Shown here: piece by piece, positions 2,224-58,957 of the stretch | Position numbering within the stretch: the first letter of the stretch is position 1 | Layout: each line of letters starts with the position of its first letter | From: Bacillota bacterium | GTDB lineage: Bacteria; Bacillota; Clostridia; Christensenellales; UBA1242 | Assembly: GCA_009787915.1 (NCBI GenBank) | Contig: WQSK01000002.1 | Span: 1 to 60,802, forward strand | DNA: 60,802 nt | Direction: 5' to 3' | The notes under the pieces: generated by a model | Told to the model about the DNA's origin: nothing | The model's database searches: none | The model's input: only the letters and a program-made list of their open reading frames with translations | Translations under genes and position numbers: made by a program

Positions 2224-3588
2224 ATGACTACGATTGAAAAAATCACAGCACTTTGCAAAAGCCGTGGCTTTGTTTTCCCTGGCAGTGAAATTTATGGCGG
2301 ACTTGCAAACACGTGGGACTTTGGACCCCTTGGTGCCGAGTTAAAAGAAAACATCAAACGCGAATGGTGGAAATTTTTTGTCCAGCAAAACCCAACAAGT
2401 GTTGGACTTGACGGCGGTATTTTAATGAACTCGGCAGTTTGGAAAGCCTCGGGTCACGTTGATGGTTTTAATGACCCGCTTATTGATTGTAAATCTTGTA
2501 AAACCCGACATCGCGCAGACCACCTGATAGAAAAGCACAGCAAAGGTAAAGTGAGCGCGGATTTTAAGCCGAACGAGTGGCTTGAAAAATGGATTGATGA
2601 CAACAAGGTCAAATGTCCGACTTGTGGAAAAACCGATTGGACAAAAATCCGCCAGTTTAACCTTATGTTCAAAACAAATCGCGGAGTCGTCGAGGGGCAA
2701 GAAGATACTGTTTACCTCCGACCAGAAACCGCGCAGAACCAGTTTGTTAATTTCACGAATGTTCAACGCTCTATGCGCATGAAAATCCCTTTTGGGATTG
2801 GGCAAGTTGGTAAAGCATTCAGAAACGAAATAACACCAGGGAACTTTATTTTTAGAACTATCGAGTTTGAACAAATGGAGCATCAACAGTTTTGTCACGC
2901 AAAAGACGCCAAGAAATTCTATGAGGATTACAAGAAACTCGCTTGGGAGTTTAACACCAAAGTTTTGGGTATTAACGAAAAAAACCTTAGGTTCAAAGAC
3001 CACGAAACTTTGTGCCACTATGCAAAGATGGCGTGCGACATTGATTATAATTTTTCATTTGGCTGGGGAGAATTGGCGGGAACACACCACCGAAGCGAGT
3101 TTGATTTGACACAACACATCAACCACAGCAAAAAATCCCTTGAATACACCGACCCTGTGACGAACGAAAAGTTTGTTCCTACGGTAATTGAATCTTCGCA
3201 GGGGCTTAATCGTTCGGTGCTTGTTTGTTTGCATGACGCGTATCACGAAGAAAAAGTTGACGACGACACCCGTGTAGTTTTAAAATTACATCCGCGGATT
3301 GCTCCGTACAAAGTTGCGGTTTTGCCCCTCCAAAAAAAGGAGCAGGGCGAACAGGCCTACGAACTGTGTCGCGAGTTGTCAAAGCACTTTGCCTGTACCT
3401 ACGACGATACCGCGAGCATCGGCAAACGCTATCGCCGACAAGACGAGATTGGAACACCTTTTTGTATCACCGTGGATTTTGACTCTGTTAAGGGCAAAAG
3501 TGTTACCATCCGCCACCGCGACACGATGAAGCAAGAAAGAATCAAAACAAAGGAGATTGAAAGTTATGTCAAATTGCATATTCTGTAG
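2224..3588 (+). CDS. glyQS: Glycine--tRNA ligase (single-chain class II GlyRS)
   Basis: MTTIEKITALCKSRGFVFPGSEIYGGLANTWDFGPLG..., FRNEITPGNFIFRTIEFEQME and a C-terminal anticodon-binding-type region. Start placed at ATG 2224, in frame with track ORF 2206. Confidence 0.9.
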   Translation: MTTIEKITALCKSRGFVFPGSEIYGGLANTWDFGPLGAELKENIKREWWKFFVQQNPTSVGLDGGILMNSAVWKASGHVDGFNDPLIDCKSCKTRHRADHLIEKHSKGKVSADFKPNEWLEKWIDDNKVKCPTCGKTDWTKIRQFNLMFKTNRGVVEGQEDTVYLRPETAQNQFVNFTNVQRSMRMKIPFGIGQVGKAFRNEITPGNFIFRTIEFEQMEHQQFCHAKDAKKFYEDYKKLAWEFNTKVLGINEKNLRFKDHETLCHYAKMACDIDYNFSFGWGELAGTHHRSEFDLTQHINHSKKSLEYTDPVTNEKFVPTVIESSQGLNRSVLVCLHDAYHEEKVDDDTRVVLKLHPRIAPYKVAVLPLQKKEQGEQAYELCRELSKHFACTYDDTASIGKRYRRQDEIGTPFCITVDFDSVKGKSVTIRHRDTMKQERIKTKEIESYVKLHIL

Positions 3589-3883
3589 GATTGCCGAAGG
3601 CAGTTTACCCAGCAAAATTATCTATGACGATGAATACACAATGGCAATCTTGGACATCGCGCCAGAACGCCCTGGGCATACTATTGTTATTCCAAAAAAG
3701 CATTGCGAAAACCTTTTGGATTGTGACCAGGACACACTTCTTCATGTTATGAACGCCGTCCGTTTGGTTACGCGTAACCTTAAAACGGGCGGAGCAAAAG
3801 CAATAAAAGTCGTACAAAACACGGGTGCACCGCTCCAGGAAGTTTTCCATTTGCACTTTCATGTGATTCCGTATAATGATTAA
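3566..3883 (+). CDS. HIT-family (histidine triad) nucleotide hydrolase
   Basis: MSNCIFCRIAEG..., HLHFHVIP histidine-triad motif. AAGGAG lies upstream of ATG 3566. Confidence 0.85.
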   Translation: MSNCIFCRIAEGSLPSKIIYDDEYTMAILDIAPERPGHTIVIPKKHCENLLDCDQDTLLHVMNAVRLVTRNLKTGGAKAIKVVQNTGAPLQEVFHLHFHVIPYND

Positions 3884-6064: not shown

Positions 6065-7015
6065 ATGAGCACAACATCACTCTACCGAAAATACCGTCCG
6101 CAGAAATTTGGGGACATGATTGGGCAAGATTACATAGTTAAAATTTTGCACAACCAAATTCAGGGGAACAAAGTTTCGCACGCATATCTTTTTTGCGGGA
6201 GTCGCGGAACAGGAAAAACAACAACAGCCAAGATTTTTGCGAGTGAACTCACAGACGTTCTTGATATCTTTGAAATTGACGCAGCAAGCAATAACTCTGT
6301 CCAAGATGTTCGGGATATCACCGACAAAGTAAAATACCCGCCTGTTCGCGGCAAGTACAAAATCTATATCATTGACGAAGTTCATATGTTTTCAGGGGCG
6401 GCGTTTAATGCTTTTTTGAAAACATTGGAGGAAACCCCGTCACACGTTATTTTTATCTTGTGTACAACCGAACCTCACAAAATTTTACCGACGGTGCAAA
6501 GCAGGTGTCTAAGGTTTGACTTTCGTTCAGCCAGCGAAAAAGATGTGGCGAAACTCTTAGAGCGCGTTACAAAAAAAGAAAACATTTTGATTGACAAAGA
6601 ATCTATCGCACTGATTTCAACGGCCGCCGCGGGGGCATATCGTGACGCGTTGTCTTTTCTTGAAACAATATCAAGTTTTGCAAACGGGTCGCAAATAACG
6701 GGGAGCACCGTTGCGATGGTTTTGGGGTCGGTACCGCCTGAGGTTTTGAACGCACTTCTTGATTCGGTAAAAAAGTGCGACTTTAAAAAGATTATTGAAA
6801 CTTGCGGAAAGATTTTTGAACGCGGTGTTAATGCAGGGTTGCTTGTCCGAAATATGTTGGAGCAAATTAAACAACGGATTATCAAGGGTGAGGACTATAT
6901 GGCAATATTTCGTTCGTTCAGTGAATTGGAGTTATCAATTAAAAACTCGGTTGACCCGCGTGCGAGTTTTGAAAACACGTGTTTGGTGGCAGGCATAGAT
7001 GGAAACGCGAAGTGA
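6065..7015 (+). CDS. dnaX: DNA polymerase III gamma/tau subunit, ATPase module (domains I-III only)
   Basis: LYRKYRPQKFGDMIGQDYIVKILHNQI, GSRGTGKTTTAKIFA (Walker A), IYIIDEVHM (Walker B), TTEPHKILPTVQSRC (SRC motif). Confidence 0.9.
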   Translation: MSTTSLYRKYRPQKFGDMIGQDYIVKILHNQIQGNKVSHAYLFCGSRGTGKTTTAKIFASELTDVLDIFEIDAASNNSVQDVRDITDKVKYPPVRGKYKIYIIDEVHMFSGAAFNAFLKTLEETPSHVIFILCTTEPHKILPTVQSRCLRFDFRSASEKDVAKLLERVTKKENILIDKESIALISTAAAGAYRDALSFLETISSFANGSQITGSTVAMVLGSVPPEVLNALLDSVKKCDFKKIIETCGKIFERGVNAGLLVRNMLEQIKQRIIKGEDYMAIFRSFSELELSIKNSVDPRASFENTCLVAGIDGNAK

Positions 7016-8286: not shown

Positions 8287-8433
8287 ATGAGATTAGAAAA
8301 TAAAACCCCCTATCCAAACCGCTCTGTCGGCGACAACTCGGTGACCCCCTTTACGAAAAGGGGAATGGCTCTGTTAAAAAATTCCCCCTTATTAAAGGGG
8401 GTGTCGCATAGCGACGGGGTTTTTTATGGCTAA
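8287..8433 (+). CDS. 48-codon ORF embedded in a hairpin-rich leader, overlapping the gltX-like start (coding status uncertain)
   Basis: AAAGGAG lies 9 nt upstream of ATG 8287. It translates as MRLENKTPYPNRSVGDNSVTPFTKRGMALLKNSPLLKGVSHSDGVFYG. The stop TAA 8431-8433 overlaps ATG 8426 of the next gene. Too short for the ORF track. Confidence 0.3.
   Translation: MRLENKTPYPNRSVGDNSVTPFTKRGMALLKNSPLLKGVSHSDGVFYG
8339..8405. repeat. Inverted pair of a GC-rich palindromic repeat (GTGACCCCCTTTAC-N-AAAGGGGAAT / ATTCCCCCTT-N-AAAGGGGGTG)
   Basis: Hairpins CCCCTTT/AAAGGGG (about 8346-8364) and CCCCCTT/AAGGGGG (about 8384-8401). A further possible outer pairing is AAAACCCC (8302-8309) with GGGGTTTT (8417-8424). 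The same core recurs at 33047-33073 on the other strand. Confidence 0.6.
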
Positions 8434-9688
8434 ACAAGTTTTCCGTATCGCACCAAGCCCGACTGGGGAATTGCATATAGGGACGCTTGGGATGGCGTTG
8501 GTTAATTACATGATGGCTAAGGCCTCGGGCGGCAAGTTTTTAATCCGCATTGATGACACAGACACCGCCCGAACAATCGAGGGTGCGGAGAAGCGTTTGC
8601 TTGAGGGGCTTGGTAAATTTGGTATTGTTTTTGACAACCCAAAGAATATTTTAAGACAATCAGAGCGTGGTGACATATACAAAAAAGTCGCCGAGGATTT
8701 GGTTAAAAGAAATTTGGCCTATCACGACGACGGGGCGATTCGTTTGAGGGCGCCACAAAACAAAGAACCAATCAAGTGGGATGATATGGCGCGGGGGGCA
8801 ATGTCTTTGCCTGCGATTGACCGCGACCCTGTAATTTTGAAATCAAACGGTTTGCCGCCGTATAGCCTCGGTCACATTATCGACGACACCGAAATGGGAA
8901 CAACCGTTGCGGTGCGCGGGGAGGAATGGATTGCCTCAACGAACGAGCATATTCAACTCTACAACGCCGTTTACAACAAAGATGTTTTTAAAAAAACAAT
9001 TCCTACCGCGTGGAAGTATTGCCACATCCCTGTAATTTGTATATTGGACAATGGGAACAAGCGAAAACTCTCTAAACGCAAAGACCGAGAAGCCCTTGTT
9101 GAAAACTTTTTGACCGAGGGTTATCCGACCCGTGCGGTTATTGAATATCTTTTGACGATATACAATACGGACTACGAAATTTGGAGAGAGCAAAATCCAA
9201 ATGTCGATTGGCGCAAGTTCAACTTTCGCAGTGAAAAAATTGGTTCCAACAGCCCATTGTTTGACCGCGACAAGTTGGATTCTATTGCACGAAATATTAT
9301 CGCCGAGATGACGATGAAAGAACTTGAACCCGAGGTGCGAAACCACTTTGGGGATAAATTAAGCGAAGAACAATACAAAAACGTGTTTACCCTTTTGGCG
9401 ATTGACCGAGGAACCGAAAGACCGCGAAAAGACATTTGCAAGTACAGCGAAATTTTGACCGAGTTTGATTATTTGTTCAAGCCCGTAAAAATGACGCCTT
9501 TGTTAAAAAAATATGCCGAACTCATCAGCGGGGTTTCGGACAAAGATACGTGGTTTCCGCTTGTGAAAGAAAAGGCAACAGATTTTGGCTTTAAAAACGT
9601 GCGCGAGTTCACGCAGGCTGTGAGGGTGGAACTCACGGGGCGCGAGAAATCAACCGACCTTTATACAATATCCAAGATTTTGCTTTGA
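8426..9688 (+). CDS. gltX: Glutamate--tRNA ligase-like class I synthetase (short, 420 aa)
   Basis: FRIAPSPTGELHIGTLGMALVNYMMAKASGGKFLIRIDDTD (HIGH region), RQSERGDIYKK, KLSKRK (KMSKS-like). Confidence 0.75.
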   Translation: MAKQVFRIAPSPTGELHIGTLGMALVNYMMAKASGGKFLIRIDDTDTARTIEGAEKRLLEGLGKFGIVFDNPKNILRQSERGDIYKKVAEDLVKRNLAYHDDGAIRLRAPQNKEPIKWDDMARGAMSLPAIDRDPVILKSNGLPPYSLGHIIDDTEMGTTVAVRGEEWIASTNEHIQLYNAVYNKDVFKKTIPTAWKYCHIPVICILDNGNKRKLSKRKDREALVENFLTEGYPTRAVIEYLLTIYNTDYEIWREQNPNVDWRKFNFRSEKIGSNSPLFDRDKLDSIARNIIAEMTMKELEPEVRNHFGDKLSEEQYKNVFTLLAIDRGTERPRKDICKYSEILTEFDYLFKPVKMTPLLKKYAELISGVSDKDTWFPLVKEKATDFGFKNVREFTQAVRVELTGREKSTDLYTISKILL

Positions 9689-21986: not shown

Positions 21987-22788
21987 TTATCATACGCATA
22001 CACGCTTTAGTGATGGTAAAAACAATGTTATTGACATGGTTCGTGCGGCCAAGGAAAAAGGTCTTCGTGAATTTGCGATAACCGACCACAGTATTAACAA
22101 AATTATTAATGGTTTCAGGGGACGGAATTTTGACAGGTACCAAGGTGAAATCGAATCCGCGCGTGCGGAGATGCCCATGCTTGTGGGTATTGAGGCCAAT
22201 GTTGTTTCAACAAGTGGGCGGATTGACCTTGATAGACGTATGGAAGGAAAAACCGATATCGTCCTATGTGGTGTTCATGTTATGGTGATTTTTACGCCTT
22301 GGGCATTTTTGACGTTTTTGTTACCAAACGTGTTTTTTAGACTAATCCACTGGACACCTCAATTCATGCGCCGAAGAAATACAAACATTGTCACCCGTGC
22401 AATCAGAAACAACGACGTAGACGTATGGACACACCCAAATCGGTATGTGAGGCTTAATGTGCTGGAGGTCGCCCGTGTTTGTGTAGAGCGGGGAACGCTT
22501 ATTGAACTTAATGGGAAAAAGATTTCTTTCCGCCCGATTGATTTTGAAAAAATGCGTGCCTTGGGTGCCAAGTTTATTGTCAACTCGGACGCACACAACA
22601 CGCAATCTATCGCGAGTGTTGCCCGTGTCGAGGAGTTTTTGAAAAACTGTGACTGGGAGCAAAGCGACATTATAAATCTAAACCAAACCTACACGGAGTA
22701 CAAAAATGCAAAATCTACTGACGCAAATCAAGACGGAAATCCAGGTGCTGAAAAGCCAAAACGCGGAATCTTCGGTAGACGCAATTAG
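21970..22788 (+). CDS. PHP-family phosphatase
   Basis: GDYHTHTRFSDGKNNVIDMVRAAKEKGLREFAITDHS..., VNSDAHN. Confidence 0.7.
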   Translation: MKLQGDYHTHTRFSDGKNNVIDMVRAAKEKGLREFAITDHSINKIINGFRGRNFDRYQGEIESARAEMPMLVGIEANVVSTSGRIDLDRRMEGKTDIVLCGVHVMVIFTPWAFLTFLLPNVFFRLIHWTPQFMRRRNTNIVTRAIRNNDVDVWTHPNRYVRLNVLEVARVCVERGTLIELNGKKISFRPIDFEKMRALGAKFIVNSDAHNTQSIASVARVEEFLKNCDWEQSDIINLNQTYTEYKNAKSTDANQDGNPGAEKPKRGIFGRRN

Positions 22789-23278
22789 AAACCTTCTTTT
22801 GTCAGCCACAGGGAGTTTCAAAACCGCGTACCACCTAGAGTTTTTTGCCCCAGATGTTGTTTCGGCACACTATTTGTGCGAGCGTTTGGCGGTGCATAAC
22901 ATCTTTGCGAATATCACAAACAACAGGGTGTATATAAAAGACAGCGAAAGTATCTGTAATCTCCTTGCCTACGTGGGGGCGGTCGAGAGTTTGTGCGAAC
23001 TCAACAACCAAATCGCAATGCGAGAATGCAAAAATGTTTCTAATCGTCGTGCTAATTGTGACTCGGCGAACATTAAAAAGTCCGTTGAAACCGCACAAAA
23101 ACAAATCCAACTCTTTAAACAGATTAAACAAGGCGAAAAATTTGAAACCCTTGACGCGGAACTTCGCGCGCTGATTGAAACACGTTTGGAAAACCCAACC
23201 GCGACCTATGACGAGTTGGGGGAGATTTTGGGCCTCACAAAAAGTGCCGTTGTACGGAGGATAAAGAAACTGTCGTAG
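22706..23278 (+). CDS. whiA: WhiA-like DNA-binding protein, short (190 aa)
   Basis: NNQIAMRECKNVSNRRANCDSANIKKSVETAQKQ and a C-terminal HTH (RLENPTATYDELGEILGLTKSAVVRRIKKL) match the WhiA C-terminal half. Roughly the first third of canonical WhiA is missing. Overlaps the PHP gene by 83 nt. Confidence 0.6.
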   Translation: MQNLLTQIKTEIQVLKSQNAESSVDAIRNLLLSATGSFKTAYHLEFFAPDVVSAHYLCERLAVHNIFANITNNRVYIKDSESICNLLAYVGAVESLCELNNQIAMRECKNVSNRRANCDSANIKKSVETAQKQIQLFKQIKQGEKFETLDAELRALIETRLENPTATYDELGEILGLTKSAVVRRIKKLS

Positions 23279-39512: not shown

Positions 39513-40562
39513 ATGAATACAAAAATCATTTGCACAATCGGACCAAAAACAGGTCAATCCAAAGAGTCCTATCCAATCATGGAGGCTCTTGCCAAGGCAG
39601 GCATGAACGTTGCCCGCATTAACTGTAGCCACGCTTCGGTTGAAAACATCAACCAAACAACCGCGAACGCACGTATGGCATCAAAGAAAACAAAAAAAGA
39701 AGTACTTGTTATGCTCGACACAAAAGGCCCAGATGTAAGGTTGGGGACCTTTGGCGAGCCATTCGTTACCGTTGAAGCGGGTCAAAAGTTTACTTTTTAC
39801 TTTGGCGACAAGTACAAAAACCACGTCGGGACAAAAGACGGTGTCTATGTTCAATACGACAAATTCCCAAGCATTATCAAGGTTGGTGCCGACATTCGTT
39901 TGAACGACGGACGTTTGGCTATGACCGTAACAAAAATCAAACCTGACATGGTCGAGGCAAAAGTTGTTGAAGGTGGAATCCTTAAGGACAAAAAAGCCCT
40001 TGCCGCACCTGGTTATGATTTGCAACTTCCATTTATCTCGCCCGAGGACGTTATTGATTTCGAGGCGGGGGTAAAAGCAGGGGTTGATTGGATAGCAGCA
40101 TCCGCGGTCATGCGTGAGAGCGATATCACAGAACTTCGTGCTCTTTTACAAAAATTGGGTGCACCGCACATCAAAATTATTTCTAAAATCGAGGACCGTT
40201 TGGGTCTTTCAAACCTTGACGCGATTATCGCCGCCAGTGACGGAATCATGGTTGCGCGTGGCGGTCTTGGTACTGATATCGGTTTGGATAAACTCCCTGC
40301 TGTTCAAAAAGACATGATTAAACGCACCCGTGCTGCTGGTAAAATCATCGTTACGGCAACAGAGATGATGGAATCTATGATGGACAAACCAAACCCGACC
40401 CGTGCCGAAGCCTCGGACGTTGCAAACGCGGTTTGGGATGGAACAGACTTTATTATGTTCAGCGGCGAAACGGCCGCAGGAAAATATCCTGTTGAAACCG
40501 TTGAATGGGCATCAAGAATCGCCACCGAAGCCGAAAAATCCAAAGACCTTTACAGGGTTTAA
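39513..40562 (+). CDS. pyk: Pyruvate kinase, A+B domains only (349 aa)
   Basis: TKIICTIGPKT, MNVARINCSHA, LDTKGPDVRLG, ISKIEDRLGLSNLDAIIAASDGIMVARGGLG, TATEMMESM, SGETAAGKYPVETV. Ends about where the C-terminal domain normally begins. Confidence 0.85.
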   Translation: MNTKIICTIGPKTGQSKESYPIMEALAKAGMNVARINCSHASVENINQTTANARMASKKTKKEVLVMLDTKGPDVRLGTFGEPFVTVEAGQKFTFYFGDKYKNHVGTKDGVYVQYDKFPSIIKVGADIRLNDGRLAMTVTKIKPDMVEAKVVEGGILKDKKALAAPGYDLQLPFISPEDVIDFEAGVKAGVDWIAASAVMRESDITELRALLQKLGAPHIKIISKIEDRLGLSNLDAIIAASDGIMVARGGLGTDIGLDKLPAVQKDMIKRTRAAGKIIVTATEMMESMMDKPNPTRAEASDVANAVWDGTDFIMFSGETAAGKYPVETVEWASRIATEAEKSKDLYRV

Positions 40563-40580: not shown

Positions 40581-40613
40581 AAAAGGGTGGTTGACTTTAC
40601 CGCCTTTTTTTGT
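40581..40613 (+). terminator. Intrinsic terminator after pyk, overlapping the next promoter
   Basis: AAAAGGGTGG-ttgacttta-CCGCCTTTTTTT. Confidence 0.5.
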
Positions 40614-40626: not shown

Positions 40627-41337
40627 ATGGATAATATTAAAGAACTTTTGACTTTGGCAGAGGGTCGTATCAGCACACAAGCCAAACTGAAAAACATTGA
40701 AAGAAACTTCAACTTGTTTTTGTCAAACTCGGATTTTCTCACAAAAAACCTGTGGGTATTGAACCAGTCCAACCCAGAACTCGGGAAACTTATGTATCAC
40801 CTTGGTTCGTTCGCGCCCCAAGTATATGCCCAGGGTTTAAGCGAAGCCTTTAAACGCAGCAACAAACCATATGACGCGCGCGTAGTCAAAGTGGTCGACG
40901 GAGATATTAACTTGCAAGAGGGCTACTACGACGAAATCCGCGGCCGATTAAAAGCGTCGAGAGAAAACGGGCGTGCAATATCTTTGTCAGAGAGTGTTTA
41001 TATTGGCAAAGAAAATCTAATTGGAACCATTAAAAACGGTGAGAGTGTTTTTACGAACTCTTATTTGGACGAAGAAGAATTGGACCGCGCAATTGATAAC
41101 CCTGCGACCCTTGAAACCCTAGACCGCCCTATCTTCCCGTTCGATGCCCAAGGCAGGGCTTGCTTGTTTGCATTTTTGAATGGGTATGATGTACCAACGA
41201 CATACAAAAACCACATATGCCCAAAAGTAAAAGTGCCAAATAGCCGTCTGCACAAAGATTTTATAAACTATGTCACCGCACGACAAGTTGACAAAAATAT
41301 AACCGACCTAGATATTGACAATTTTGATTTTTCGTGA
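40627..41337 (+). CDS. Hypothetical 236-aa protein, paralog A (pairs with 44442-45149)
   Basis: MDNIKELLTLAEGRIST...NPELGKLMYHLGSFAPQVYAQGLSEAF...DNPATLETLDRPIFPF... Shares blocks with paralog B (DPELAQFMYKIGSFNAEKLAEYLNESF; NDPATLMGIERRIYPF). Confidence 0.6.
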   Translation: MDNIKELLTLAEGRISTQAKLKNIERNFNLFLSNSDFLTKNLWVLNQSNPELGKLMYHLGSFAPQVYAQGLSEAFKRSNKPYDARVVKVVDGDINLQEGYYDEIRGRLKASRENGRAISLSESVYIGKENLIGTIKNGESVFTNSYLDEEELDRAIDNPATLETLDRPIFPFDAQGRACLFAFLNGYDVPTTYKNHICPKVKVPNSRLHKDFINYVTARQVDKNITDLDIDNFDFS

Positions 41338-41343
41338 TATAAT
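41315..41343 (+). promoter_or_regulatory. Perfect-consensus promoter TTGACA-17-TATAAT, 6 nt before ATG 41350
   Basis: TTGACA 41315-41320, 17-nt spacer, TATAAT 41338-41343. Embedded in the 3' end and stop of paralog A. Confidence 0.6.
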
Positions 41344-41349
41344 AATAAC

Positions 41350-41433
41350 ATGAACCAAAGTTGCAAATTCAAAGGAATTGGACTTCACCATCACCATGTG
41401 GGCAAAGCACCGCATGGTTTTATCTGTAACTAA
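41350..41433 (+). CDS. Candidate leaderless His-rich leader peptide (27 aa)
   Basis: ATG AAC CAA AGT TGC AAA TTC AAA GGA ATT GGA CTT CAC CAT CAC CAT GTG GGC AAA GCA CCG CAT GGT TTT ATC TGT AAC TAA translates as MNQSCKFKGIGLHHHHVGKAPHGFICN. There are four consecutive His codons plus a fifth. Confidence 0.55.
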   Translation: MNQSCKFKGIGLHHHHVGKAPHGFICN

Positions 41434-41458
41434 TATTATTTAAAACGAACCATGTGAA

Positions 41459-41493
41459 ACCGCTTTGCCGAAACACCGTGCAAGGCGGTTTTT
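41459..41493 (+). terminator. Intrinsic terminator of the candidate attenuator
   Basis: ACCGCTTTGC (41459-41468) pairs with GCAAGGCGGT (41480-41489) over 10 bp including one G-U, followed by a T-run. Its 5' arm can alternatively pair with GGCAAAGC at 41401-41408. Confidence 0.65.
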
Positions 41494-41548
41494 AGTTGTC
41501 GCAACTTTTGGTTCAAAAAATAAATTAAAATTTAAGGAGAAAATAAAA

Positions 41549-42538
41549 ATGAATAATCTTGAAAAAATAAAAAGAGAAAGTAATAAGAAAACGTGCGGCG
41601 TCATATGCCCGCGACAAGAAAAAAAGTGCAAGACGAAATACGGTTTTGGATTCAATAGGGCATCCCTTTTGGATTTCGGTGTTATCGAAAAAGAACCGAA
41701 ATACTGTATTTCAACGGAGGACGGAGCCGAAATAATGGATGCATGGAATGTAAAAGGGCGAAAACCTCTTAGCCCCGAAGAACTTGACGAGGTGGTTTTG
41801 AAAAACAGGAAACTTACCCCAGAGTACATGATGAAGATAAAATACGGGGCAAGACTCTCCGTTGCCCTCCCAAGCGGAATAATGATAGGGAGAGCATATG
41901 AACTATTTGCAAGGGCAGGACTTAGGAGTCGCGATTTTGAAGAAAAGTTCGACGATAAAACCTATGAATACCAAGGTCCCGAAGCGGTTTTCAATGTAAC
42001 AAAACCAAGCGACGTACCCCAAGCAATCGACGGAGGCTATGACGACTTTGGTATCTGTGGATTCGATTCAAAACGCGAATACGAACTCTCGAACATCACC
42101 CCAAGCGGTGCTATGGCGGGTCGTGGATTTGTATCGGATTTTATACCCGACTTGGGACTTTGCAACATGACGTTTAAGGTCTGTGGTCTGCCTGAAAATA
42201 AAAAGAAATTCGCCGAACGCCTCAAAAACGGTCTGCCAATCGTCGTTGCAACCGCATACCCCGCGATTGCAATGGACTATTTGTCCAAAAAATACCCGAA
42301 CGCAAGATTCGACATCCGAACATTAAACGGCAAAGTCGAGAGTGCACCCGCCCGATACGGCGACGATGCAATTTTTGAAATTGTCGGCACAGGCGCGGCA
42401 CTTGAAGCCAACAGACTTGAGGTCTATAGCAACGCTATGGACAACCCAACACGGCTCTTGTTATCACGTGTAGCAATCCGAAAAGACCCACGTATAATGC
42501 AAGTTGCCGAGAAGATTAAAGAACAGGTGCTTTCATGA
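41549..42538 (+). CDS. hisG: ATP phosphoribosyltransferase (HisG short-form)-like protein with a roughly 105-aa N-terminal extension
   Basis: AAGGAG lies 8 nt upstream of ATG 41549. LSVALPSG..., KPSDVPQAIDGGYDDFGICGFDS, VVATAYPAIAMDYLSKKYPNARFDIRTLNGKVESAPARYGDDAIFEIVGTGAALEANRLEV align block by block with short HisG as I recall it. The N-terminal Cys/Lys-rich extension is unassigned. Confidence 0.7.
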   Translation: MNNLEKIKRESNKKTCGVICPRQEKKCKTKYGFGFNRASLLDFGVIEKEPKYCISTEDGAEIMDAWNVKGRKPLSPEELDEVVLKNRKLTPEYMMKIKYGARLSVALPSGIMIGRAYELFARAGLRSRDFEEKFDDKTYEYQGPEAVFNVTKPSDVPQAIDGGYDDFGICGFDSKREYELSNITPSGAMAGRGFVSDFIPDLGLCNMTFKVCGLPENKKKFAERLKNGLPIVVATAYPAIAMDYLSKKYPNARFDIRTLNGKVESAPARYGDDAIFEIVGTGAALEANRLEVYSNAMDNPTRLLLSRVAIRKDPRIMQVAEKIKEQVLS

Positions 42539-43848
42539 AAAAGTTTGAATTATACTGCCTCGGCGGAAACGAAACCGCGATTATAACGAAGAATTTGCCA
42601 GATGCAGAAGCCCTTGTTTTATCAAAACAAATCATGCGCGAAAACCCCGAAGTCGAACAAGTCGCCATTATAGAGTCCGTGAAAAACAATGTTTGTAATT
42701 TCCGAATGACAGGGGGCGAGTTTTGCGGCAACGCAGTCCGCGCGGTTGCCGAGTTCATGAGGCGGAACTTTGGTTTTTCAAAATCGAAAATCATTATAAA
42801 CGGCATTGAAATCGAGGGCGAGAGCAATGGGCGGACAAGCACCATAACCCTGCCCAAGAAAAGTTTGTTGCGCGAGGTCAAAACCCTAGGCGGTCGGACC
42901 TATGTTGTGATGAACGGAATCACACACGTTGTTGTGGATGGTCGGGGCGATGAAGTTTTGGCTCGTAAAATCAAAGACGACGCAACCGCCCGCGGAATCA
43001 CAAATGACGCGTTTGGCGTAATGTTTTTGGACGGAAACAAAATCAACCCATTTGTCTGGGTGGAAAAAGCCCAAACCTTTTTCAACGAAACCGCATGCTT
43101 AAGCGGGAGTATCGCGGTGTCTATCTTTTTGAACCAAACAAAAATTATCCAACCAACTAATGAAACCTACACAATTGAAATCACCGACACGAAAATAACG
43201 GCAGGTGGCAAAGTTGCCTTCATAGACAAAGAAACCACGACCAAGTTGGAGCAAGGTTTTGTTAAATACGCCGACCTTGTAGGCATCAAAAAATGCAATC
43301 CGAAAACGGACAAAGAGGCTTTGGTGACTTTTGGTGATGTGCTTGTGCGTGAAAGTGTTTTTCAAAAACTTGGCATGGTAGACAAAAATTTGAAGGCCAT
43401 TAACCCAAATTTGGAATTGGTTGTTGTCGAGGGCTGGCGACCCATGAAAGTCCAAGAGGCAAAATTCAACGAAATCCGCGAGCAACTTAAATTCAAATAT
43501 ACCGACGAGCAGGAACTACTCGAAGCCGTGCACCGCCTTATCGCTGTGCCAAGCGTTTGTGGGCACCCAACGGGCGGAGCCGTAGACGTGACAATCCGCG
43601 ACACGATAACGGGGGAACTTTTGGATTTCGGCACACCGATTCACGACTTATCTACAAAAGACGTTTATACATTCTCGCCACGGTTTGATGAAAACTCTGT
43701 CGGGCGCAAAAATCGTGAACTCCTGCGCCGTGCCATGGTGGAACAAAACTTTGCCCCGTTTGATGGCGAGTGGTGGCACTTTTCATACGGCGACAAAGAA
43801 TGGGCCGTGTACTATGGTCTTGAACAATTTTTGTATGGCGCACGTTAA
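42535..43848 (+). CDS. Fusion protein: DapF-like PLP-independent epimerase/racemase domain + VanX/DdpX-like D,D-dipeptidase domain
   Basis: N-terminal half: LGGNETAII, MTGGEFCGNAVRAVAEF and NETACLSGSIAV (two Cys blocks as in DapF CGNG / ACGTG). C-terminal half: LVVVEGWRPMKVQ, SVCGHPTGGAVDVTI, DGEWWHFSYGD (VanX-type motifs). ATG overlaps the hisG-like stop (ATGA). Confidence 0.65.
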   Translation: MKKFELYCLGGNETAIITKNLPDAEALVLSKQIMRENPEVEQVAIIESVKNNVCNFRMTGGEFCGNAVRAVAEFMRRNFGFSKSKIIINGIEIEGESNGRTSTITLPKKSLLREVKTLGGRTYVVMNGITHVVVDGRGDEVLARKIKDDATARGITNDAFGVMFLDGNKINPFVWVEKAQTFFNETACLSGSIAVSIFLNQTKIIQPTNETYTIEITDTKITAGGKVAFIDKETTTKLEQGFVKYADLVGIKKCNPKTDKEALVTFGDVLVRESVFQKLGMVDKNLKAINPNLELVVVEGWRPMKVQEAKFNEIREQLKFKYTDEQELLEAVHRLIAVPSVCGHPTGGAVDVTIRDTITGELLDFGTPIHDLSTKDVYTFSPRFDENSVGRKNRELLRRAMVEQNFAPFDGEWWHFSYGDKEWAVYYGLEQFLYGAR

Positions 43849-43853
43849 GAACT

Positions 43854-44399
43854 GTGGTATATTTATTTGTGCAAATAATCGGAGTTACGGGTTTAAGCGG
43901 AAGCGGCAAGACCACATGGTGTGCAAAACAAAATGGCGAGCACATCGAGGTGGACCGTTTTGTGTATGCGGTTTTGGACGAGGCCGACTTTATCGACGCC
44001 GTTGTGAAATTGCTGGGTACTGATATCTTTGTTGTGAAAGGCAAAACGGACAAACGGAAACTTGGAGAGATTGTTTTTGCGTCTGACGCGGACACGATTT
44101 TTCAGTATAACAAACTCGTTTGGAATTTTGTAGAACCAAGGATGCACACGGCGATTGCTTCGGCACGCAAAACAGGCAGGGATATTTTTATTGACTATCT
44201 TTTTTTGACGCACCCGCTGGCAGGGCTTTGGGAACTTTGCACGAAAAAAGTCCTAATCACGCGCGACGACAACAAGCGGTTAATGGCAGTAGCAAAACGC
44301 GATGGAGCCACTGTTGATTATATCCGCGCCCGTGACACTGCATTCCCGTTTACATTCAACGAAAAAGAATTTGATACTGTAATTCGGGTTGATGTATAG
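43854..44399 (+). CDS. coaE: Dephospho-CoA kinase
   Basis: IIGVTGLSGSGKTT P-loop, about 180 aa. An alternative GTG start exists at 43869. Confidence 0.8.
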   Translation: MVYLFVQIIGVTGLSGSGKTTWCAKQNGEHIEVDRFVYAVLDEADFIDAVVKLLGTDIFVVKGKTDKRKLGEIVFASDADTIFQYNKLVWNFVEPRMHTAIASARKTGRDIFIDYLFLTHPLAGLWELCTKKVLITRDDNKRLMAVAKRDGATVDYIRARDTAFPFTFNEKEFDTVIRVDV

Positions 44400-44434: not shown

Positions 44435-44441
44435 ATAATTG

Positions 44442-45149
44442 ATGAGCAATATTAATAAAGAAATATTTGAAACGGCAAAAGCCCATTTCAATGCGCAAGC
44501 CGAGCAAATACGGCTAAGTAAAGCGTTGTATTTTGCAATCGATGCACGAAAGGACAAAGCCCTCTTTAACATGCCTTTGGCAGAATTAAAGGCAAAAGAC
44601 CCTGAACTCGCACAATTTATGTACAAAATTGGTTCTTTTAATGCAGAAAAATTGGCGGAATATTTGAACGAGTCCTTTGACATCTATTTCAAGAACGACA
44701 ACTTTAAATTTTCTGCGACCACAAAGCGCACTGTAAACGACATAACTTTGTGTGAGGATAACTTTGACAAAATAGTCGAATTACTGAAAAAGGAAAACCC
44801 AAAAAAAAGAAACCCAGGATTGTATGACTATGTACCAGTTTGGGGTCACGAAAGGCATTTAGGCGACATTTATAATGGGCAATATACTTTTGGTTCGTCG
44901 TTTATAACAGAAGAACAAAAGCAAATGGCGATAAACGACCCTGCGACTCTTATGGGGATTGAAAGGCGTATCTATCCATTTAGCGATGTAAAGGCTGAAC
45001 ACTCTCTGTACTCACTTCTCGCGGGGCATACTGCATGGATGGAGGTAACGTCGCCCAACCGCGACAGGACTATAGAAAAAGTATTCGGTAGATGTGTTCC
45101 ATACGTAGTCGGAAGAAATATACAAGAACTTGGCGATGATTTTGTTTAA
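44442..45149 (+). CDS. Hypothetical 235-aa protein, paralog B (pairs with 40627-41337)
   Basis: See paralog A. Same length class and shared sequence blocks. Confidence 0.6.
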   Translation: MSNINKEIFETAKAHFNAQAEQIRLSKALYFAIDARKDKALFNMPLAELKAKDPELAQFMYKIGSFNAEKLAEYLNESFDIYFKNDNFKFSATTKRTVNDITLCEDNFDKIVELLKKENPKKRNPGLYDYVPVWGHERHLGDIYNGQYTFGSSFITEEQKQMAINDPATLMGIERRIYPFSDVKAEHSLYSLLAGHTAWMEVTSPNRDRTIEKVFGRCVPYVVGRNIQELGDDFV

Positions 45150-57365: not shown

Positions 57366-57776
57366 ATGTCAGTAATGAGCATGAATTTTGGAAAGCACAT
57401 TGTCTTTTCGGAGTACAAGGAAACAAAAACAGAGTTTGACAATAAAAGTGGTCGGCTTGTAGGTGTTGGTGTTTTGTCGCCTATCCCTGCCGATTCCCGT
57501 TCGTGTTTGGTGCGTATTTCAAGCAACAAAAATAACGACATACATCGTGGCATCCTAATTTGCCACGGTCACGTTAAAAACGATTTTGTTGGCGAGTACA
57601 AAGACATGCAATCAACCTTGTTGATAACAAAAGACAATGATAAATATCACCTTGCTTGGTCAGTTGACGGCAAAGATACTTTTTATGGATTCGGCAAAAT
57701 TGTCGACGGCAACCTTGCTTTTGCCTATGGCGAAATGGACAGTAAATTCACGTTCGGAATTGAAATAAATAATTAA
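57366..57776 (+). CDS. Hypothetical small protein (136 aa)
   Basis: Internal ATG of track ORF 57276-57776 (MSVMSMNFGKHIVFSEYKE...). No motif recognised. Confidence 0.45.
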   Translation: MSVMSMNFGKHIVFSEYKETKTEFDNKSGRLVGVGVLSPIPADSRSCLVRISSNKNNDIHRGILICHGHVKNDFVGEYKDMQSTLLITKDNDKYHLAWSVDGKDTFYGFGKIVDGNLAFAYGEMDSKFTFGIEINN

Positions 57777-58957
57777 ATCCTATCCAATCGCCTTGGCGAG
57801 CCAATATAGTTATACAAAAGCCCCAATTGGTCGGTCGGGACATAAACAAACGTCCCACCGTCATATTGCAGGATTAAGTACTCTTTTTTCTCAGACCCAA
57901 ATTCCATGCGTTTCTTTCCAATGTATCTTCCAAGTCCATGTTTTTGATGTATGACCAAAGACCCCTCCTGCGGAATCTCGAATTCACAATCGCAATAATC
58001 CAACCCCTCGGTGGTCGCACAGTTTTCATTGTGAATTGTCTGTGGTTGCGGTGGGGCGGTGCCAATAGAATAAACCACAATCCCTTGGTCAACCAATTCG
58101 AACGAAGCCCCCAATGGTTTTTGCACTATATTGATTGCGCCATGATGAATGTTGTCATATGTCGTGATTTTATAAGTGATTGCTTTTTGTTCAAGGTACC
58201 GCTCTAACGCTTTTGATTTTCCCACATAGCAAACAACGGTTTTGTTTCGTGACTTTATGTTCCAAACCAACTCGGGTACCAGCACCGATATCGCCGAGAA
58301 ATAATTTGCAACAGGCGCGGTACGGATTTTAAGTGACACCACAGGCTCAAATGGTTCTTTCAAATTAACCCAGATTGCCAACTTTGTTTCTTGTTCCAAA
58401 ACAATTATAGGGTACCTATGTTTTAGGCTCTCCAAAACGCTGGTATGTTCTGTGGCTATGTATCGGTCGGGGATAGGGGCAATTGTACAAGACTTTAACG
58501 TGTCAATTGTTGTAAACCCACCTGGGTCAATGGTTTTTATTTGTTCTATTTCGTCACCCAAAAACATTATGCGAAACAAAATACCGTCAGAAAACACGTC
58601 CAATATATCACCCCTAAGTTGCCATTCGCCCTCGTGTTCAATTCGTACAACTTTTTGGTAACCAAACTCTGTCAAGGTCGCAACCATGTCTTTAAGTGCA
58701 ATCCTCTGACTGCCCTTGTACAAAACAGGCGGGGGGATGATTGGTATCTGTGTTTCAAGATTATCCGCACTTGTCACCGTGACGGTGGTTCCAAGTTCCA
58801 AACCCATGTTTTCAAACACCGTGCGTGCATGCTCCATGTTCTCGGGGTGGCTTGCAACATACGCGAACGGAACCCCAATTGCACCTGCAATCACGGGCGC
58901 AACAGAAATATCGTCAATCACAACCGAAGTATTATTTTCATGAGGGATTTTAAACAT
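57773..58957 (-). CDS. mfd: Mfd (transcription-repair coupling factor) N-terminal fragment: UvrB-homology module + RNAP-interacting domain, no translocase
   Basis: GEWQLRGDILDVFS (as in Mfd/UvrB GEFSVRGGILDIF) and EGSLVIHQKHGLGRYIGKKRMEFGSEKKEYLILQYDGGTFVYVPTDQLGLLYNY (CarD/TRCF RID). The ORF stops right after the RID. Follows pth as mfd does in Bacillus. Confidence 0.75.
   Translation of the reverse strand: MFKIPHENNTSVVIDDISVAPVIAGAIGVPFAYVASHPENMEHARTVFENMGLELGTTVTVTSADNLETQIPIIPPPVLYKGSQRIALKDMVATLTEFGYQKVVRIEHEGEWQLRGDILDVFSDGILFRIMFLGDEIEQIKTIDPGGFTTIDTLKSCTIAPIPDRYIATEHTSVLESLKHRYPIIVLEQETKLAIWVNLKEPFEPVVSLKIRTAPVANYFSAISVLVPELVWNIKSRNKTVVCYVGKSKALERYLEQKAITYKITTYDNIHHGAINIVQKPLGASFELVDQGIVVYSIGTAPPQPQTIHNENCATTEGLDYCDCEFEIPQEGSLVIHQKHGLGRYIGKKRMEFGSEKKEYLILQYDGGTFVYVPTDQLGLLYNYIGSPRRLDRI

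Follow-up and report, generated by a model that had tools for sequence, protein, structure and literature searches.

The stretch analysed here, which we call the window, covers positions 1 to 60,802 of contig WQSK01000002.1 (60,802 nt) from an uncultured Bacillota bacterium (GCA_009787915.1, lineage UBA1242). Our subject is a short region of it, 41315-41548, which leads from a gene at 40627-41337 into a hisG-like gene that starts at ATG 41549. This region contains a promoter, a mini-ORF (open reading frame) with a run of histidine codons, and an intrinsic terminator placed between that ORF and the first structural gene. We treat it as a candidate attenuator, and all of its parts lie on the plus strand.

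The promoter (41315-41343) is of the sigma-70 type, with a -35 box TTGACA (41315-41320), a 17-nt spacer and a -10 box TATAAT (41338-41343) preceded by TG; the upstream gene's stop codon (TGA 41335-41337) falls within it. Between the -10 and ATG 41350 there are six bases (AATAAC), which puts the A of the AUG 7 nt after the -10, and no purine-rich Shine-Dalgarno (SD) sequence. The mini-ORF that this ATG opens, MNQSCKFKGIGLHHHHVGKAPHGFICN, has 27 codons and a TAA (41350-41433, stop codon at 41431-41433). It includes four consecutive His codons, CAC CAT CAC CAT (41386-41397), which we take as the regulatory codons, and a fifth His codon at 41413-41415. An initial annotation of this DNA had called the promoter perfect, the ATG six nt beyond it SD-less, and the 27-codon ORF His-rich; all of this is borne out, the promoter scoring 12/12. 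A second promoter-like site, TTGACA-17-GATATT (10/12), overlaps the main promoter and is positioned 27 nt farther upstream (41288-41316); transcription from it might yield a short leader, likewise without an SD.

The run at 41386-41397 is the sole run of at least four His codons in the 60.8-kb window (any frame, both strands). From base composition, one would expect ~0.05 such runs per strand of the window, or ~2e-4 per 200-nt stretch.

Four segments of the leader RNA can form three mutually exclusive helices (1:2, 2:3 and 3:4). Segment 1 (41393-41401), found both by inverted-repeat search and in folds, overlaps His codons 3-4 and forms the 5' arm of an anti-antiterminator hairpin. Segment 2 (41401-41420) can pair with segment 1 (via 41410-41418) or with segment 3 (via 41401-41408 and 41411-41420). 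Segment 3 (41447-41469) can in turn pair with segment 2 (41447-41456 with 41411-41420, and 41462-41469 with 41401-41408) or provide the terminator 5' arm (41456-41470), and segment 4 (41477-41494) is the terminator 3' arm (41477-41492), overlapping the U-run (41490-41494). There is also a direct repeat in this layout: ACCATGTG (41393-41400, segment 1) recurs at 41449-41456 within segment 3.

Hairpin 1:2 has 9 bp (41393-41401 / 41410-41418, -15.1 kcal/mol), and its core is the ACCATG/CATGGT pairing (41393-41398 with 41413-41418) that the initial annotation had picked out. The antiterminator 2:3 (41401-41420 / 41447-41469, -23.3 kcal/mol) joins a perfect 8-bp match between GGCAAAGC (41401-41408) and GCTTTGCC (41462-41469) to a 10-bp helix (41411-41420 / 41447-41456), and it shares 41456-41469 with the terminator. 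For the terminator, the inverted-repeat search gives arms at 41457-41468 / 41480-41491, and the minimum free energy (MFE) fold gives a stem of 41456-41470 / 41477-41492 (-21.5 kcal/mol) with U5 at 41490-41494. Both parts of the antiterminator, as well as the terminator hairpin with its T-run after the ORF, had been proposed before: the inverted-repeat search recovers the 8-bp pairing, ribosome-masked folds recover the 10-bp helix, and the MFE terminator stem is longer than first described.

Masked folding, in which the bases covered by a ribosome are kept from pairing, links these helices to the position of translation. When a ribosome is stalled with the first or second His codon in its A site (mask to A+11) and the RNA stops short of the terminator 3' arm, the best fold is the full antiterminator (-24.3 to -24.4 kcal/mol). 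When the ribosome is instead masked at the stop codon, helix 2b:3a is lost, i.e., the pairing of segment 2b (41410-41420) with the part of segment 3 that repeats segment 1 (segment 3a).

The close clade consists of four loci and includes three close hisG-like homologues (57-61% identity), which come from other metagenome assemblies. In all three, a His-run mini-ORF is flanked by a promoter on one side and by one or two terminators on the other. Locus L005 repeats the window geometry exactly: TTGACA-17-TATAAT (12/12), 6 nt, then an ATG without SD that opens the leader MLIKRNHHHGI (ended by a stop codon), with two terminators beyond. L006/L007 have TTGACA-17-CATGGT-6-ATG (a weak -10) and the leader MNIQRVTFAKGGTIAIHHHGI, and L001 has TTGACT-17-TATAAT followed by an SD-led leader, MKVELFKRNHHHGS, both likewise ended by a stop codon. 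Masked folds of L005 give a comparable switch: with the ribosome stalled at the His codons, hairpin A:B forms together with a C:D pairing that sequesters an arm of the second terminator, and both terminators form once the mask is moved to the stop codon.

The His codons of these leaders are CAC CAT CAC, CAT CAT CAC and CAT CAT CAT, compared with CAC CAT CAC CAT in the window. This variation among loci is synonymous, and is therefore what coding constraint predicts. The relatives keep the His-run ORF while the sequence of their leader RNA diverges, to the point that no alignment was obtained between the hairpin region of the window and those of the relatives; the window leader is, in turn, 100% identical in two other assemblies. 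The comparative search suggested in the initial annotation, for a conserved His run and covarying helices, thus succeeds for the His run, which is kept in homologous leaders, and not for the helices, for which the copies are either identical or not alignable. Wider searches added no close members: a scan of 185,579 species genomes gave no hisG relative above 39% identity, and a metagenome scan with clade-specific patterns gave, among the matches listed, only relatives of 38-40% identity.

These comparisons bear on whether the mini-ORF is there by coincidence. The hairpin and U-run could serve only to terminate the upstream gene 40627-41337, which they follow and which has no terminator of its own, leaving the hisG-like operon unregulated or regulated by a protein (a HisR-type repressor or an RNA-binding protein); the window helices, seen in identical copies only, leave room for this. 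We give this explanation very little credence. A terminator serving only the upstream gene has no need of a consensus promoter between that gene's stop codon and itself, and the only HHHH-coding run of 60.8 kb falls exactly here. Moreover, His-run mini-ORFs recur before homologous genes with different flanks and synonymous codon changes, and an 8-bp perfect match and a 10-bp alternative pairing overlap the terminator arm.

They bear equally on whether the leader might sense a ligand or a tRNA directly, as a T-box, riboswitch or other non-ribosomal attenuator in which the His codons are incidental. In favour of this, the leader RNA has a high degree of structure (z = -4.4 for 41350-41500 and z = -5.3 for 41350-41560, relative to dinucleotide shuffles), and in many Firmicutes the his genes are most commonly controlled at the RNA level by T-boxes (PMC9413887). 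A whole-window Rfam scan at gathering score, however, found no T-box (RF00230), His_leader (RF00514), ykkC/PRPP, riboswitch or other family, and a permissive scan of 41150-41650 (E up to 10) also found no T-box, His_leader or ykkC/PRPP, nor anything else relevant. The leader is only ~145 nt long and matches no T-box model, and the His-run ORF is what the relatives preserve as their RNA diverges, leaving direct RNA sensing with hardly any likelihood.

The spacing between -10 and ATG, both here and in L005, suggests that AUG 41350 would be the 5' end of the transcript, i.e., that the leader mRNA would be leaderless. The same arrangement, a promoter-like -35/-10 ending 5-8 nt before an ATG without SD, precedes many real genes of the window: ATGs 20733 (ProRS), 24216 (DnaE), 29467, 30992, 40627, 48155 (SDR) and 59948 (YchF-like) on the plus strand, and 59522 (Pth) and 17841 (PHP protein) on the minus strand. 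Family models agree with the leaderless N-termini of ProRS, DnaE, Pth, SDR, the PHP protein and a metallophosphoesterase. Of 20 ATGs preceded by a promoter, six open an ORF of at least 100 aa as its first ATG; the background is 5% (P = 3e-4). Leaderless mRNAs thus appear to be common in this genome, and a leaderless start at 41350 is plausible because its geometry is shared with these genes and with L005; a leaderless leader would fit the habit of the genome. In Firmicutes, leaderless transcripts are said to be rare (PMC3896937).

The upstream gene offers another way for ribosomes to reach the leader. It ends inside the promoter spacer with no terminator between it and the leader, so the same His attenuator could be translated from longer transcripts, starting at the 41288-41316 site (10/12) or at the upstream gene's promoter near 40591, by termination at TGA 41335-41337 and reinitiation 12 nt later at AUG 41350. 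The upstream genes of L005 and L006 likewise end close to the leader, with stop codons ~15 nt ahead of its ATG. Reinitiation across 12-15 nt without an SD is generally inefficient, which counts against this route, and it does not account for the two loci with 12/12 promoters that put the A of the ATG exactly 7 nt after the -10, nor for the same geometry at many bona fide gene starts of the window. L001, furthermore, has its own terminator, promoter and SD before the leader, so coupling to the upstream gene is not conserved. As the way in which the leader is translated, reinitiation strikes us as improbable; as an additional route it is possible, with perfect promoters at a leaderless distance and the genome-wide pattern favouring leaderless initiation.

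Taken as a whole, the element is probably a histidine-responsive, ribosome-mediated transcription attenuator with a leader peptide made from a leaderless mRNA. That it attenuates transcription through a ribosome reading His codons, as the initial annotation had suggested, is supported by its anatomy (the order of its parts), by masked folding, by the His-run leader ORFs of related loci and by the geometry of L005.

Under this model, transcription would start at or beside A41350 from the promoter at 41315-41343, and a 70S ribosome would load on the 5'-terminal AUG and translate the 27-codon ORF. If His-tRNA(His) were scarce, the ribosome would stall with His codon 1 or 2 (41386 or 41389) in its A site, covering segment 1 and freeing segment 2 (41401-41420) to pair with segment 3 (41447-41469). 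Helix 2:3 would form before segment 4 is made and would hold the terminator 5' arm, allowing RNA polymerase to read into the hisG-like operon. If His-tRNA were plentiful, the ribosome would instead reach TAA 41431 and unwind or cover segment 2b (41410-41420); with the ribosome over segment 2, helix 3:4 would form, and the hairpin plus U5 would end transcription near 41494. Untranslated RNA would fold 1:2 first and should then terminate too, as should read-through transcripts from the upstream gene, in which the AUG would be internal and have no SD. What the analysis shows directly is the sequence elements, the exclusive helices with their energies, the stalling register in masked folds and the recurrence of the design in related loci; the transcription start, leaderless translation, folding kinetics and histidine response are inferred.

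Beyond the terminator, the read-through RNA has one more predicted helix. The sequence at 41501-41515 is complementary to the transcript's 5' end at 41351-41364 (including the UG of the AUG), and the two form a closing helix of 14 bp with one bulge that encloses the whole leader in both the MFE and centroid folds. L006 and L001 have an analogous pairing, there between the 5' end and the terminator 3' arm. As a matter of speculation, the closing helix could prevent re-initiation or shield the 5' end. It is a new point of this leader.

The His-run mini-ORF might also control translation (through access to the ribosome binding site, RBS) or mRNA stability and not termination, much like the Cys leaderless small ORFs (sORFs) of mycobacteria, which act on the RBS; the closing helix, too, could affect 5'-end accessibility or stability. 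In the window, however, the SD of the hisG-like gene (AAGGAG, 41534-41539, 9 nt before ATG 41549) is unpaired in all predicted folds, a canonical stem and U-run stand ~55 nt upstream of it, and the relatives carry one or two canonical terminators. We accord this reading only a slight chance; translational control is unlikely to be the main mechanism.

Several points weigh against the attenuator model or limit it. Promoter geometry is the one line of evidence that points to a transcription start at 41350 and to leaderless translation. The stalling register is ideal for only some of the four His codons, as a ribosome stalled at the third or fourth covers GGCAAAGC in part. Once the ribosome stands at the stop codon, GGCAAAGC is behind it and could in principle still pair with GCUUUGCC. 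Free RNA lacking the terminator 3' arm thermodynamically prefers 2:3 over 1:2, and some basal read-through by strand displacement is possible because segment 3a repeats segment 1. The window helices are seen in a single sequence, given the identical copies and non-alignable relatives described above, and the downstream unit, described below, is not a classical his biosynthetic operon (hisGDCBHAFI).

The remaining point concerns folding at equilibrium. The initial annotation had called for a comparison of the two states. As isolated helices, the antiterminator has -23.3 and the terminator -21.5 kcal/mol; on the full leader at equilibrium, the terminator wins in every case, with P(terminator pair) at least 0.93 when a ribosome is stalled. 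The attenuator model thus requires the fold to be decided kinetically, during transcription, as it is in classical attenuators: trp, too, favours the terminator at equilibrium. For this reason we set aside equilibrium folding as a refutation of the attenuator.

More distant hisG genes (33-40% identity) lie in ordinary his operons of termite-gut metagenome-assembled genomes (MAGs), and there, too, His leaders occur. SD-led His-rich leaders followed by terminators are found upstream of hisG at L008, L013, L015, L019, L021, L024, L026, L035, L041 and L044, e.g., MNTKHYTHHTSSHHHHLMAFCVI and a leader that begins with MTRLIPTTHSHAGVHHHVHHIRHG, and leaders such as the latter lead into GC-rich hairpins with U-runs. 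The labels of these MAGs are Oscillospiraceae, Clostridiales or Erysipelotrichaceae (L008 and L044 are metagenome contigs). A mini-ORF with at least four His in seven residues is present in 9 of 39 hisG upstream regions; none occurs in the 39 reverse complements, and there are 2 among 555 other chunks of 350 nt taken from these loci. In 18 related loci without His leaders, no T-box was found at the Rfam gathering score. Within the loci compared, His leaders are thus a frequent feature of hisG upstream regions in uncultured gut Clostridia and Erysipelotrichaceae.

The hisG-like gene itself (41549-42538, plus strand) encodes 329 aa and matches family models and Protein Data Bank (PDB) chains: Pfam PF01634 (HisG) at 75.8 bits (cut-off 25.5), TIGR00070 (hisG) at 80.5 bits, barely above the cut-off of 75.75, and PDB 2vd2 (the short-form HisG of B. 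subtilis) over residues 100-323. By these matches, residues ~100-324 are a predicted short-form ATP phosphoribosyltransferase fold, and the earlier identification of a HisG homologue behind an SD and ATG 41549 holds for those residues. The first ~95 residues (window 41549-41833) are an extension with four Cys that is missing in all homologues: the nine found in the database have lengths of 231-245 aa, and their alignments all begin at residue ~96. Residues 1-98 have no Pfam match, and no homologue of them was detected among 5.8 billion proteins. The SD/ATG region of the window aligns with the hisG start of relatives, as if the extension had been inserted behind the start codon.

Three more genes follow on the plus strand before a convergent gene. 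The second gene of the unit (42535-43848) encodes a 437-aa fusion of a CntK/HisR-type histidine-racemase-like half with an M15 (VanX-like) dipeptidase. Its N-terminal half matches PDB 9cr6 (E = 2e-11), the NCBIfam HisR/CntK models and Pfam CntK_N (the last in a precomputed record), and its C-terminal half is the M15 VanX-like dipeptidase domain. The third gene (43854-44399) encodes a CoaE-like P-loop kinase, and the fourth (44439-45149) is a 236-aa ORF whose family was not recognised. Relatives share part of this arrangement: in L005, an M15 peptidase (1139-1780) comes next after the hisG-like gene, and in L001, the hisG-like gene is followed by a HisZ/HisS-like gene and then by a protein with a C-terminal M15 domain (2489-3862).

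The association of hisG-like and M15 genes suggests a conserved, uncharacterised histidine-related module, and the window operon would be linked to histidine through its hisG-like and histidine-racemase-like genes, as judged from homology. The his setting assumed in the initial annotation thus stands as far as hisG homology goes and does not extend to a classical his operon. The non-canonical operon, with its extended hisG-like gene, racemase-like/VanX-like fusion and kinase-like gene, is a new point. If the attenuator works as proposed, it marks the hisG-like and racemase/dipeptidase function as induced by histidine starvation, pointing to an uncharacterised histidine-related role.

Among known systems, the nearest in principle is the enterobacterial hisL leader (RF00514), which also has a short ORF with consecutive His codons upstream of hisG, alternative helices with an antiterminator overlapping an intrinsic terminator, and a fold set by ribosome position. 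The window differs from hisL in that it has no sequence or structure match to the model, four plus one His codons where hisL has seven, no SD, an AUG at the presumed 5' end of the transcript, a three-helix, trp-like layout, and a downstream operon other than hisGDCBHAFI.

His leaders have also been predicted in Firmicutes, where Ashniev et al. 2022 (PMC9413887) found nothing with RF00514 and predicted novel His-leader attenuators in 17 genomes by comparative genomics only. These belong to the Bacillus cereus group, Peptostreptococcaceae/Lutispora and Erysipelotrichales (the Oscillospiraceae of our distant leaders are not among the listed groups) and have 3-5 consecutive His codons and a drawn leader RBS before complete hisZG... 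operons. They share with the window a low-GC Gram-positive setting and a His run directly upstream of attenuator/terminator hairpins. The window leader differs in having no RBS, in preceding an atypical operon and not hisZG..., and in coming from an uncultured lineage outside those groups. Ribosome-mediated attenuation as such is reported to have been shown experimentally in low-GC Gram-positives, with the leucine-rich ilv-leu leader peptide of Staphylococcus aureus (PMC5794164) and a branched-chain amino acid attenuator of Listeria (PMC5864092), which, as those reports describe them, sense branched-chain amino acids and not histidine.

Leaderless leader peptides have been described in other phyla. 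Deinococcus deserti has 14 candidates for attenuation (PMC4007540), Streptomyces lividans uses them in attenuation (PMC8079986), and mycobacteria have the Cys leaderless sORFs mentioned above, which act on translation (bioRxiv 10.1101/834739). All of these resemble the window leader in having an AUG at the transcript 5' end (by promoter geometry in the window), enrichment in cognate codons, hairpins that come next (with or without a U-run) and a genome with many leaderless genes. They differ in coming from Deinococcota and Actinomycetota, mostly of high GC, and the main texts on the Deinococcus and Streptomyces leaders (PMC4007540, PMC8079986) name Cys, Trp, Leu, Ile/Val, Ala, Thr and Met, not His.

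The novelty claimed in the initial annotation is therefore narrower than first put. His leaders had already been predicted in Firmicutes, and leaderless leader peptides had been described elsewhere. The mechanism itself is known, and what is new is a His leader of leaderless type in a low-GC Gram-positive-type genome. It suggests that leaderless initiation and attenuation can coexist in such a genome. Together with its relatives, it also widens the spread of comparatively supported His leader-peptide attenuation outside Proteobacteria and adds to the 17 genomes listed by Ashniev et al. 2022. Furthermore, a 5'-terminal AUG is usable only after it has left RNA polymerase, and the leader would thus be a natural system for timing ribosome loading relative to transcription, at a time when bacterial coupling is debated.

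A broader proposal combines these points: an uncultured low-GC Gram-positive-type lineage, represented by metagenome assemblies only, that starts a large share of its genes leaderless has adapted attenuation to that mode, and its His leader controls, in place of histidine biosynthesis, an undescribed histidine-acquisition module (an orphan-domain HisG-like protein, a racemase/VanX-type dipeptidase fusion and a kinase), with the closing helix shutting the leader AUG after read-through. We put this forward tentatively, as a doubtful but serious possibility.

The rest of the window gives some idea of the genome. Its DnaE passes the cut-off of model PRK06826, which we take to be a clostridial-type DnaE model, and WhiA and a SpoVB-like flippase are encoded as well; the window contains no rRNA gene. 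The Bacillota-like character seen in the initial annotation is plausible. Several housekeeping proteins are short: the pyruvate kinase (39513-40562) has the barrel domain only (349 aa), Mfd (57773-58957, minus strand) is limited to its N-terminal 394 aa, GluRS (8426-9688) has 420 aa, DnaX (6065-7015) has 316 aa, and WhiA (22706-23278) matches the C-terminal half of its model only. Many window ORFs have no family match, and many of the encoded proteins are short or orphan. Short housekeeping proteins and orphan ORFs together suggest a divergent or reduced genome.

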